Positions 802 through 9,074 of a stretch of 9,428 nucleotides of DNA are shown piece after piece. The notes beneath the pieces are model-generated. The model saw only the letters and a list, made by a program, of their open reading frames with translations, made no database searches and was not told the origin of the DNA. Numbering within the stretch: the first letter of the stretch is position 1; each line of letters opens with the position of its first letter. Source of the stretch: Octopus sinensis (taxonomy: Eukaryota); the NCBI RefSeq assembly GCF_006345805.1, contig NW_021827939.1:1-9428 (forward strand), read 5' to 3'. The translations under genes and the position numbers were made by a program.

Positions 802-1004
802 TAAAAACAGAGTGAATGATGACACATTATCAATGATTTCATAAGCTACAAGTGTTTCAAATAAACTGACGCAATTAATTGATGTACATTGCAAATAGCA
901 ATATGCATATACGATCAATTACTCTTTTGATCGGCAGAAATCTTGTAGAATTTGCCAGTACATCTCCGTAATATTCATGCATATATAGAGACCACTGGTA
1001 TTTA

Positions 1005-1237
1005 AAAGGCGGCGAGCTGGCAGAATCGTTAGCACGCCGGGCGAAATGCTAAGCGGTATTTCGTCTGCCGTTACGTTGTGAGTTCAAATTCCGCCGAGGT
1101 CACTTTGCCTTTCATCCTTTCGGGGTCGATAAATTAAGTACCAGTTGCGCACTGGGGTAGATATAATCGACTTAATCCGTTTGTCTGTCCTTGTTTGTCC
1201 CCTCTATGTTTAGCCCCTTGTGGGTAATAAAGAAATA
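1005..1237 (+). mobile_element. tRNA-derived SINE family A, copy 1 (Nin/Deu-domain-like core), head + one body
   Basis: A-box-like TGGCAGAATCGTT in the head and B-box-like GAGTTCAAATTCC at 1080-1092. Core GCCTTTCATCCTTTCGGGGTCGATAAATTAAGTACC resembles the Nin-DC domain (from memory). Four homologous copies in the window. Flanked by direct repeat GGTATTTA (997-1004, 1238-1245). Confidence 0.9.
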
Positions 1238-1355
1238 GGTATTTATAGAGTGTTAAACACTTTCAGTATGCATATTAGGGATTCCTTCATAGAGTAACTG
1301 CTGCATTTGTCAAGTATATAAGCAGTTTGGTTGATTGTTTCTTTGGAGAACGTTA

Positions 1356-2714: not shown

Positions 2715-2999
2715 AAGGCGGTTAGCTGTCAGAATCGTTAGTGCGCCGAGCGAAATGCTTAGCGGTATTTCGTCTGCCGTTACGTTCTGAGTTCAAATTC
2801 TACCAAGGTGTCGACTTTGCCTTTCATCCTTTCGGGGGTCGATAAATTAATTAAGTACCAGTTACGCACTGGGGTCGATGTAATCGACTTAATCCCTTTG
2901 TCCCCCTCTATGTTTAGCCCCTTGTGAGCAATAAAGAAATAGGTATTTCGTCCATCCTTATGTTCCCAAATTCCGCCGGGGTCAACTTTGCCTTTCATC
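2715..2999 (+). mobile_element. SINE family A, copy 2: head + body (2764-2941) + partial second body (2942-2999)
   Basis: Homologous to 1005-1237. After the tail AAAGAAATA the sequence restarts at GGTATTTCGTC and runs to GCCTTTCATC. Confidence 0.9.
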
Positions 3000-3067
3000 T
3001 ATAAGATGGAGTGCTGTTTTAATTGAGTTGTATTTTACACAAATTAATTTCGAATATATATATATAT

Positions 3068-3260
3068 ATGTGACCTCGTATGTACTGTTGGCGATTTTTT
3101 TCCCTTTGTCTTCCCTTCTCTGGATCTTTCCTTCTCCTATGTTTCCGACGAAGAGCTCTGCTCGAAACGTTAAACCCTCCTTCTTTCCTGAGCGTCTCCA
3201 ATAATACTATATTTGTTCCACATCCTCGCGTTGTTGTGTTTTCCGTTTTGGATTAACTTT
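3068..3260 (+). mobile_element. Penelope-like pLTR-derived repeat, family P1 copy 1, with hammerhead variant at 3141-3175
   Basis: Near-identical copy at 6600-6773. GTTT-CCGACGA-A-GAGC-TCT-GCTC-GAAA-CG-TT-AAAC has hammerhead topology with palindromic ACGT helix III. Embedded in (TA)n. Confidence 0.75.
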
Positions 3261-3551: not shown

Positions 3552-3934
3552 GGCGCATGAGTGGCTGTGTGGTAAGTAGCTTGCTAACCAACCACATGGT
3601 TTCAGGTTCAGTCCCATTGCGTGGCATCTTGGGCAAGTATCTTCTGCTATAGTCCCGGGCCGACCAATGCCTTGTGAGTGGATTTGGTAGACGGAAACTG
3701 AAAGAAGCCTGTCGTATATATATATATATGCGCGTGTGTGTTTGTCCCCCTAGCATTGCTTGACAACCGATGCTGGTGTGTTTACGTACCCGTAACTTAG
3801 CGGTTCGGCAAAGAGACCGATGGAATAAGTACTGGGCAAAGAATAAGTCCCGGGGTCGATTTGCTCGACTAAAGGCGGTGCTCCAGCATGGCCGCAGTCA
3901 AATGACTGAAACAAGTAATAGTGTAAAAGAGTAA
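3552..3934 (+). mobile_element. tRNA-derived CORE-like SINE family B (octopus OK/OR-type), full length
   Basis: A-box TGGCTGTGTGG, B-box GGTTCAGTCCC, CORE-like CTTGGGCAAGT, internal (TA)(GT) tract, and tail GCTCCAGCATGGCCGCAGTCAAATGACTGAAACAAGTAA with short repeats. Family name is from memory only. Confidence 0.85.
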
Positions 3935-6253: not shown

Positions 6254-6488
6254 TATTTCTTCATTACCCACAAGGGGCTAAGCATAGAGGGGACAAACAA
6301 GGACAGACAAAGGGACTAAATCGATTACATCGACTCCAGTGCATAACTGGAACTTAATTTATCGACCCCGAAAGGATGAAAGGCAAAGTTGATCTCGGCG
6401 GAATTTGAACTCAGAACGTAACGGCAGACGAAATACCGCTAAGCATTTCGCCCGGCACACTAACGTGTCTGCCAGCTCGCCGCCTTTT
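6254..6488 (-). mobile_element. SINE family A, copy 3 (head + one body)
   Basis: Reverse complement reads AAAAGGCGGCGAGCTGGCAGACACGTTAG...GGTAATGAAGAAATA and ends in a TA tract. Confidence 0.9.
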
Positions 6489-6570: not shown

Positions 6571-6599
6571 TGTGTATGTATGTATATATATATTTCAAA

Positions 6600-6773
6600 A
6601 TGTGACCTCGTATATACAGTTGGCGATTTTTTTCCCTCTGTCGTCCCTTCTCTGGATCTTTCCTTCTCCTATGTTTCCGACGAAGAGCTCAGCTCGAAAC
6701 GTTAAACCCTCCTTCTTTCCTGAGCGTCCAACAATACTTTATTTGTTCCACGTCCTCGCGTTGTTGTGTTTTT
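6600..6773 (+). mobile_element. Penelope-like pLTR-derived repeat, family P1 copy 2, with hammerhead variant at 6673-6707
   Basis: Aligns with 3068-3242; same CCGACGA core and GAAACGTTAAAC. Confidence 0.75.
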
Positions 6774-7406: not shown

Positions 7407-7410
<4 letters not shown>

Positions 7411-7685
7411 CTTGACCGACCAGATGTTGCTACACATCGCTGGTCACAATGCGCTTCGCATTGTTTTAGCCTTCAAGTGACGCCACCCCTAGCTAAGCGA
7501 GCAGGCCAAGAAAAAAAAGTGAAGAAAGTTGTGGCGAAAGAGTACAGCAGGTCGCCTCCATCCCCTTCCGGAGCCTGGAGCTTAGGTGTTTTTGCTCAAT
7601 AAACACTCACAACGCCCGGTCTGGGATCGAAACCGCGATCCTACGACCGCGAGTCCGCTGCCTAACCACTGGGCCATTGGCGGCT

Positions 7686-7688
<3 letters not shown>
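7407..7688 (-). mobile_element. tRNA-derived SINE family C
   Basis: Minus strand has A-box TGGCCCAGTGG, B-box-like GGTTTCGATCCC, CORE/V-like TTGAGCAAAAACACCTAAGCTCC and a structured 3' tail. Flanked by (TA)n on both sides. Confidence 0.8.
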
Positions 7689-7725
<37 letters not shown>

Positions 7726-8147: not shown

Positions 8148-9074
8148 ATGACAGATCGAACTTTGAAAGAAGTCAAATTGTTGGTGCTCGTATGGCAGGC
8201 GCTAGCATAACGAAAACAGTCGAAATGTTTGGTGTATGAAAAAGTACTGTATCGAAAGTAATGACAGCCTTTGAGAAGAAGGGAAAAGCCTCCTCGTCGA
8301 AACAAAACTCCGGAAGGAAACCAAAACTTTCAGATTGGGGCCGTCGGACTCTTACGCCAATTGTTAGAAAATATCACAAAAGTACAGCTCCCAAAATTAC
8401 TGCAGAGCTTAAGGACCACCTCGAGAACCCAGTTTCCACAAAAATTGTTCAGCTGGAGCTGCACAAAGCCAGCTTTTACGAAAGGGCTGCAAAAAAAAAA
8501 AAACCACTACTTTCAAAAATAAACGTTGCAAAGCGTTTAGAGTGGAGTAAAAACCTACAGAATTGGTCCCTAGAGAAGTGGAAGGATGTTATTTTCTCGG
8601 ACGAGTCATCCTTTACCTTATTTCTGACCATCGGTCGAGAATACCCATTTCTTTATTACCCACAAGGGGCTAAACACAGAGGGGACAAATAAAGACAGAC
8701 GTAGGTATTAAGTCAATTATATCGACCCCAGTGCGTAACTGGTACTTAATTTATCGACCCCGAAAGGATGAAAGGTAAAGTCGACCTCGGCGGAATTTGA
8801 ACTCAGAACGTAACGGCAAACGAAATACCTATTTCTTTATTACCCACAAGGGGCTAAACACAGAGGGGACAAACAAGGACAGACATAGGTATTAAGTCGA
8901 TTACATCGACCCCAATGCGTAACTAGTACTTAATTTATCGACCCCGAAAGGATGAAAGGCAAAGTCGACCTCAGCGGAATTTGAACTCAGAACGTAACGG
9001 CAGACGAAATACCGCTAAGCATTTCGCCCGACGTGCTAACGTTTCTGCCAGCTCGCCGAGAATACGTGTGGAGA
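8148..9074 (+). pseudogene. Tc1 transposase pseudogene (paired-like HTH, GRKPKL, HTH2, first catalytic D)
   Basis: ATG at 8148, frameshift near 8157, then NFERSQIVGARMAGASITKTVEMFGV*KSTVSKVMTAF (stop 8237-39) ...SGRKPKLS...KKPLLSKINVAKRLEW...WKDVIFSDESSF...GREY. After removing the SINE and one TSD copy it continues VWR (9066-9074). Confidence 0.9.
8645..9056 (-). mobile_element. SINE family A, copy 4: head + two complete 184-bp bodies
   Basis: Head 9056-9014, body 1 9013-8830, body 2 8829-8646. 9-bp TSD CGAGAATAC at 8636-8644 and 9057-9065. Confidence 0.93.

Follow-up and report, generated by a model that had tools for sequence, protein, structure and literature searches.

Joined units in an octopus SINE: homology-guided insertion into resident copies as the probable origin

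The 9,428 nucleotides analyzed here, hereafter the window, are positions 1 to 9,428 of contig NW_021827939.1 of Octopus sinensis (assembly GCF_006345805.1, forward strand). They carry copies of a repeat in which a second, headless unit follows the first, and starts at one exact base inside the first unit's head, at the 3' edge of a hairpin loop. How is such a join made? An earlier note on this DNA, made from its letters, proposed that the hairpin loop is cleaved and the RNA ligated into a circle. We examined the join in the window and across the genome.

The repeat family and its joins

The family has four copies in the window, at 1008-1237 (+), 2717-3000 (+), 6254-6484 (-), and 8646-9058 (-). 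Copy 1 (1008..1237, +) is a single unit composed of a tRNA-like head (model positions 1-49), a body (50-168), and tail A (169-233); position 50 of the SINE model corresponds to window 1055. Motifs resembling an A box (1018..1029, +), which contains model position 17, and a B box (1080..1092, +) were recognized by consensus. Copy 2 has a headed first unit whose tail carries the C allele (2717..2941, +) and a diverged second unit that begins at model 50 and ends early, near model 112 (2942..3000, +). Copy 3 (6254..6484, -) is a single unit with an AT microsatellite at its end. Copy 4 has a headed first unit (8830..9058, -) followed by a 184-nt second unit spanning model 50-233 (8646..8829, -).

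Copy 1 is bounded by target-site duplications (TSDs), a 5' one at 997..1004 (+; GGTATTTA) and a 3' one at 1238..1245 (+), which resembles the start of another unit but is target DNA. The TSD of copy 4 lies at 8636..8644 (+) and again at 9057-9065, reading GTATTCTCG on the element strand. In both copies 1 and 4, the GGTATT that follows the final unit is a target-site duplication, which the earlier note overlooked. We ruled out a truncated second unit as the source of GGTATT after single copies, since the same letters are duplicated upstream. Copy 4 sits within a broken reading frame (8159-8644 and from 9066 on, +) that, by motif likeness, we take to be a Tc1/mariner-like transposase.

By its sequence, the element appears to be a tRNA-headed SINE, with its boxes assigned by consensus. 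A cloverleaf-like fold and box-like motifs are visible in the head; ARAGORN made 0 calls and Rfam gave no tRNA match. Relaxed ARAGORN runs allowing introns on the element returned noise only, and Rfam, searched with E up to 1, gave 55 matches that were all under the gathering score, those that were read being microsatellite-rich stretches. The head would be transcribed by Pol III. TSDs are clear, at 11-23 bp, for many sampled tail-A elements, and also for window copies 1 and 4. Tail A (1184..1237, +, in copy 1) can be aligned for about 55 nt with the 3' ends of three L1/Tx1-like LINE copies (L153:5001-7800, L178:6900-9270, and L139:1700-4365), which are 67-82% alike among themselves. Reading frames of these LINEs contain RVT_1 and zf-RVT domains, and their best solved match is human L1 ORF2p (E 4e-48). 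On the basis of about 55 nt of similarity, such a LINE is a candidate partner for mobilizing tail A; Tx1 is a tentative label for it, and by sequence it is L1-like (best solved match, zf-RVT).

We sampled the genome in 160 evenly spaced 10-kb stretches of large contigs (1.6 Mb), parsed with profiles built from natural copies. The sample contained 317 elements, each with head (1-49), body (50-168), and then either tail A or one of an older group of B tails. With this number in 1.6 Mb and more than 30,000 exact joins, the family is a short interspersed repeat with at least 100 copies. Tail A was present in 79 elements, having one unit in 50, two in 19, three in 7, four in 2, and five in 1; among the 50 single-unit elements, three belong to one local triplication and about five are fragments of the tail only. 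Over all arrays examined, the maximum was 11 units. The earlier note had called for a genome-wide tally of unit number and junction precision; the examined arrays have 1-11 units, and exact joins occur in tens of thousands of instances genome-wide.

Exact joins of tail A to position 50 number 31,465 genome-wide (29,479 with the T-allele tail and 1,986 with the C-allele tail), and reversed-pattern controls gave 0 matches, which puts the join far above chance. A second fixed join, of the tail into the A box at position 17, has 2,979 exact instances genome-wide, and carries the C allele in 88 among 100 matches listed; this join type was unnoticed in the earlier note. Joins of tail B3 to position 50 were absent genome-wide (0). 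We rejected a join at tail|43, which would rely on GAAAT matching the 5' arm, as it has just 4 instances genome-wide. Over all examined loci, which were partly selected by join, the unit after tail A begins at position 50 in 142 cases and at 17 in 51, and that after tail B at 17 in 4. The two join types come in any order within arrays. At L059 (-), ~8512-8648, a 67-nt deletion unit, in which the join start is fused to tail A, occurs twice within an array.

The head hairpin and the circular-RNA reading

The head hairpin (1040..1065, +) has 11 bp, with arms 1040-1050 and 1055-1065 pairing around a 4-nt loop (1051-1054), and its 3' arm starts with GGTATTT, the preferred insertion site. Its computed energy of -12.0 kcal/mol (z -4.75) was reached by 0/200 shuffled sequences. 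The earlier observation that the head folds between the A and B boxes thus holds, the boxes being assigned by consensus, and from box spacing the hairpin would occupy the place of a tRNA anticodon arm. Across 90 heads, 90.6% of stem cells are paired (87.1% shuffled), with two-sided changes in 30 cells (9.7 shuffled). Stem pairs with a two-sided change number 5 against 3.9 shuffled (154/500), which is not above shuffles, and the heads are related sequences. The loop-closing pair switches from T-G to G-C in 49/57 heads carrying G45, probably as one subfamily event. This G-C subfamily (head positions 45 and 50) keeps the hairpin and has lost the perfect GGTATTT target, possibly as an escape from self-insertion.

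The earlier note placed the starts of repeated units at the first base of the 3' arm, which is correct; the positions that it gave (1055, 2764, and 9013) are arm starts within headed first units, and the repeated units start at 2942 and 8829. The join 14-mer GAAATAGGTATTTC is present at 2936-2949 (+) and 8835-8822 (-), as had been noted. Its letters are complementary, so that part of the description as a perfect fold-back stands, but the isolated 14-mer does not fold (0.0 kcal/mol), and with flanks it gives -1.4 kcal/mol (z -0.84) and -5.4 kcal/mol (z -2.26). Invasion of the hairpin by the RNA 3' end, also proposed, is not supported by energy: the 6-nt duplex of tail end and arm is worth -2.0 kcal/mol, against -12.7 kcal/mol for the arm to be displaced. 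Conserved as it is in the head, the hairpin is not required to account for the join.

What would a circle leave behind? Cleavage of the loop and RtcB-type ligation would give a 184-nt circle (or trans-ligated RNA) that is reverse-transcribed into arrays, which predicts arrays that have no head, repeat one template, and have joins beginning with that template's own base 50. For U6/L1, retrotransposing chimeras made by RtcB are known (PMC6789731). In line with a circle, the exact join sits at the loop's 3' edge, and a minority of arrays have near-identical neighbors, with 3/55 pairs showing no diagnostic difference and a within-array distance of 0.099 (0.110 shuffled, p 0.0002); these near-identical units are true local duplicates. 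Arrays are headed, however: in 25/26 random arrays the first base lies no further in than model 27, the flank of the remaining 1/26 contains an internally deleted head, and 76/83 targeted arrays carry a head. Adjacent units are also unlike. Nine diagnostic sites disagree in 40.9% of cases between units 1 and 2 (43.9% shuffled, n=55) and in 39.5% between units 2 and 3 (43.1% shuffled, n=15), with differences of 7.9% at non-diagnostic columns. Position 50 is C in 44/204 tail-A heads (22%), but C joins occur in 0/19 arrays with a C50 head, and only 349/31,814 exact joins (1.1%) begin with C at 50, the other 31,465 beginning with G. Headed arrays, units from different source copies, and scarce C joins together argue against a circle.

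Several further features point the same way. The start points of 5'-truncated copies do not cluster at 50 (4 and 5 in bins 41-50 and 51-60; 138 copies begin at model 1-10), and tail B3|50 joins are missing genome-wide. The T-run is equally fixed in joins (111 T3, 3 T4) and in heads (102, 7, and 1), and tail|57 joins and doubled joins were seen in none of the examined loci, which argues against blunt ligation in trans too. From box spacing, a tRNA-intron (TSEN/RtcB) register would put the 3' cut near 56-58 and not at 49|50. The natural dimer has no hammerhead CTGANGA core on either strand, and no ribozyme family is among the Rfam matches. A tRNA-intron circle was ruled out by the features tested (no tail|57 joins, fixed T-run, 0 ARAGORN calls), as was a non-LTR retrozyme by headed arrays, unlinked units, and the lack of a CTGANGA core in the natural dimer. 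The genomic tests thus largely refute loop cleavage and ligation to a 184-nt circle, which we now regard as highly improbable: arrays are headed, adjacent units are unlinked, and joins lack the head's position-50 allele. That units meet exactly at a hairpin loop does not by itself speak for circular RNA.

Template change, target choice, and nested insertion

If the units of an array were inherited together, variants should be linked across the join. In 59 arrays, 0/99 site pairs were linked across the join at p<0.01, against 8/55 and 6/36 pairs within the units of those arrays, and 22/55 pairs within a unit at n=184. Similarity between arrays in unit 1 does not carry over to unit 2 (Mantel r 0.02, p 0.10, n 92). 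Adjacent units derive from different source copies, and the join is the point where templates change. These data bear on the reading in which one ancestral duplication produced a composite master, and copying with unequal crossing-over did the rest. An invariant join tied to one tail allele would suit it, as would the slight tendency of tail-B dimers to inherit their units together (Mantel r 0.10, p 0.038, n 28). Against it stand the two join types in any order with 0 linkage across the join, old and young B tails among downstream units, and the re-making of the join in place at two nested loci with TSDs, L278 and L280 (see below). We consider it very unlikely. The earlier note had named descent of all multimers from a single duplication, with never more than two units, together with an absence of RNase R-resistant junction reads, as the findings that would speak against a circle; what we observed is up to 11 units, recurrently re-paired.

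Most of the clear TSDs of tail-A elements begin where the tail stops. In the random sample, GGT (background frequency 1%) follows the tail in 16/34 T-allele versus 1/20 C-allele elements (p 0.0018), and an A start in 1/34 versus 11/20 (p 1.7e-5). Over all examined loci, the respective values are 49/90 and 3/38 for GGT and 4/90 and 23/38 for A. Some flank rows are decayed units, 8 among T rows and 3 among the random C rows, and removal of the latter leaves GGT at 0/17 for the C allele. The match between flank and hairpin arm is 0.60-0.89 at positions 1-7 and drops to 0.21 (background) at position 8, with true flanks having T, A, or G next after GGTATTT, and seldom C. The alleles sort joins likewise, the 50-join having mostly T tails and the 17-join mostly C tails. 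This allele-dependent flank match indicates that each allele inserts, for 7 nt, at DNA like its multimer downstream. We infer a GGUAUUU terminus on the RNA, which would pair with the nicked target strand. Such pairing at the RNA end during target-primed reverse transcription (TPRT) is shown for human L1 (PMC3649969) and proposed for SART1Bm and R1Bm (PMC7265360).

Alternatively, the LINE endonuclease could itself prefer GGTA(T), like target-specific Tx1 elements, making RNA pairing superfluous. The candidate partner is L1/Tx1-like, and in many Tx1 elements target preference is set mainly by the endonuclease (PMC4494074). Yet the target switches with a tail allele that is linked to what follows the tail, and other letters follow the three LINE ends seen. 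Two different partner enzymes, one per allele, may act here; overall we judge this explanation improbable.

Nested copies reveal joins in the making. A search for head position 50 followed by a fresh head within 11 nt gave 67 matches, or 45 candidate loci once tandem head arrays were collapsed. Nested counts relative to target 13-mers in the sample were 45/26 for position 50, 71/63 for an antisense-strand GGTACTT site, and 23/59 for position 17, versus 19/113 and 3/105 for two body control sites, which are about 4x as common as the position-50 target. The GGTACTT site lies outside the hairpin and is hit about as often as position 50 (71 matches). We inspected 4 of the 45 candidate loci: two are clean (L278 and L280), L281 is nested with repeated heads, and L279 is not nested. 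At L278, a young guest 97% like the model lies within an old B copy (host head 76%, body 85%); at L280, a young copy lies within a trimer, with a private TSD variant at both sides. New copies thus insert at position 50 of older copies, re-creating the join, and insertion at position 17 of resident copies is likely. As to the hairpin being a special hot spot, we found no visible boost over a generic GGTATTT site and rejected the idea: generic sites were hit in 5/390 cases in the sample (two perhaps decayed units), and the estimate per head site is at most 0.006 (45 loci / 0.18 exact heads / ~44,000 targets), not above the generic GGTATTT value.

Long arrays have a separate history. Those of 7-11 units have one head each and, where readable (L260, L271), a single outer TSD. 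At L271, inner units differ from one another at 0-9 positions in a period-4 pattern, and each edge unit is 16-20 differences away from them; L251 and L260 have shared variants in blocks or period-3 patterns. These variant patterns show that long arrays grew by DNA-level duplication of inner units after insertion, as is described for SINE satellites (PMC10702118, PMC11481361). Head-only tandem arrays with a 65-67 nt unit (G000 C3430:1375-2204, C1:195358959-195359248, C7:15322788-15323082, and C18:40399007-40399166) cannot arise from a 184-nt unit and hence also point to DNA-level expansion; they likely grew from nested insertions at position 50.

From these results we propose, with a probability of about 60%, that the SINE inserts at position 50 of older copies through pairing of an RNA-end GGUAUUU, and that the multimers then grow at the DNA level. 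Pol III would transcribe head, body, and tail, stopping at the first run of at least four T. Because the family model has no internal T4, source RNAs likely extend 7 nt past the tail. An L1/Tx1-like LINE enzyme would recognize tail A and prime at a nick by pairing of RNA end and target; the observed part of this step is that target starts match GGTATTT at seven positions, depending on the tail allele. Insertion at position 50 of a resident copy, as seen at nested loci, yields head-body-tail|50-body-tail plus a TSD. The new head would then transcribe this composite, which would be copied elsewhere as a headed multimer, and a jump of the reverse transcriptase to a second RNA by the same homology likely makes some joins. 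Duplication of inner units at the DNA level, evident from the variant patterns, lengthens arrays later. About 7/80 true T-allele target sites have a fourth T after GGTATTT, which would provide the next terminator and sustain the cycle. Any matching target would likely serve, the SINE's own head being the commonest.

How far nested insertion accounts for ordinary multimers is less certain, and template jumping, the second idea of the earlier note, which would follow the same 7-nt homology rule, is its closest competitor. Most joins would then be made within one insertion, with nested insertion as a side route: the reverse transcriptase copies one RNA as far as position 50, the cDNA end is released as the hairpin folds again, and the enzyme jumps to a second RNA's GGUAUUU, following the 7-nt homology in trans and not the fold-back. 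Unlinked joins and near-geometric unit numbers (50/19/7/2/1) fit jumping per insertion at least as well as our proposal. Random arrays have a single outer TSD without a remnant head (a nested remnant at position 50 is found in 0/26), the hairpin is conserved, and an extra 5' head piece in L279 suggests that the reverse transcriptase jumps between SINE templates. We roughly estimate a ratio of about 1 founder locus to 44 arrays, and re-copying would thus require many rounds of source turnover. Of the candidate nested loci behind the proposal, 4/45 were read and 2 of these are clean. Template jumping, for its part, requires a jump in ~1 of 3 passes. C-allele tails, mainly joined at 17 without this hairpin, are joined similarly (8/28 vs 22/56 tail ends), and no direct trace of a jump was found, in contrast to nested insertion, which is directly seen. 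Jumping may make many joins, and as the main route we hold it to be possible though doubtful. A bolder version, in which the SINE assembles itself, its terminator end serving as a 7-nt target guide and renewing the terminator while the hairpin aids chaining by the reverse transcriptase in ~1/3 of insertions, is similarly tentative.

Known systems and neighboring repeats

The family works like a complex SINE with homology-guided priming. Complex SINEs in SINEBase (PMC3531059) have in common with it a Pol III-type head, a body, a LINE-like tail, TSDs, and dimers or trimers; here there are 1-11 units, two exact entry points within the head, and recurrent re-pairing of units in place of one inherited dimer. 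The TSD-(SINE)n-TSD arrays of the blood clam (PMC11481361) and squamate SINE satellites (PMC10702118) likewise begin with a headed unit and continue with head-truncated repeats inside one outer TSD, and their expansion is attributed to unequal recombination. The accessible text of those two papers puts such arrays at ~3% of copies and does not say how the first join arose, whereas here arrays make up ~1/3 of tail-A copies and the join is traced to homology-guided insertion at one site.

In human L1 (PMC3649969) and SART1Bm/R1Bm (PMC7265360), a few RNA-end bases likewise set the priming site, and downstream target sequence in the RNA improves insertion accuracy. The difference is that here a non-autonomous SINE has the matched site in its own promoter head, building multimers. 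SINEU, with its Tx1-Mar partner (PMC4494074), is alike in its Tx1-type partner, target preference, and successive insertions at one site, but its target is a DNA transposon, its tandem copies sandwich a TSD, and its preference is ascribed to the endonuclease. Animal non-LTR retrozymes (PMC7761336; bioRxiv 10.64898/2026.07.22.740005) also form tandem units of a few hundred nt; they have hammerhead ribozymes, seemingly no promoter, and circles, in contrast to the promoter head, missing hammerhead core, and unlike units seen here.

Our literature search, with repeat databases and subscription papers outside its scope, returned no account of these joins or of homology-guided self-insertion into a SINE head. 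How dimeric SINEs and SINE satellites originated is usually deduced from one-time events of the distant past; in this family such an event repeats itself and can be counted, with a built-in control in the form of two tail alleles with two different targets. The data provide genome-scale evidence that the insertion site is chosen by the RNA's last bases as well as by the endonuclease, and they offer a traceable route from dispersed SINE to multimer to satellite. The octopus SINE families OK, OR1, and OR2 were reportedly described by Ohshima and Okada in 1994; we take them as a possible lead for this family, given an octopus-like repeat landscape and a head-A-B dimer of ~400 nt.

We note several other repeats around the copies studied. 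L017 has another copy at the same GGTATTT site of a host repeat related to window 997-1300, with a different TSD length; the two copies may reflect independent insertion or an old duplication. A second SINE-like repeat at ~3552-3925 (+), with a tRNA-like head and an internal microsatellite, has a short GGGGTCGAT stem motif in common with the studied family, and a third, at ~7408-7689 (-), has a tRNA-like head and is flanked by AT microsatellites. Another repeat occurs at 3054-3196 and 6586-6728, in two copies 94% identical that extend to ~3240 and ~6770.
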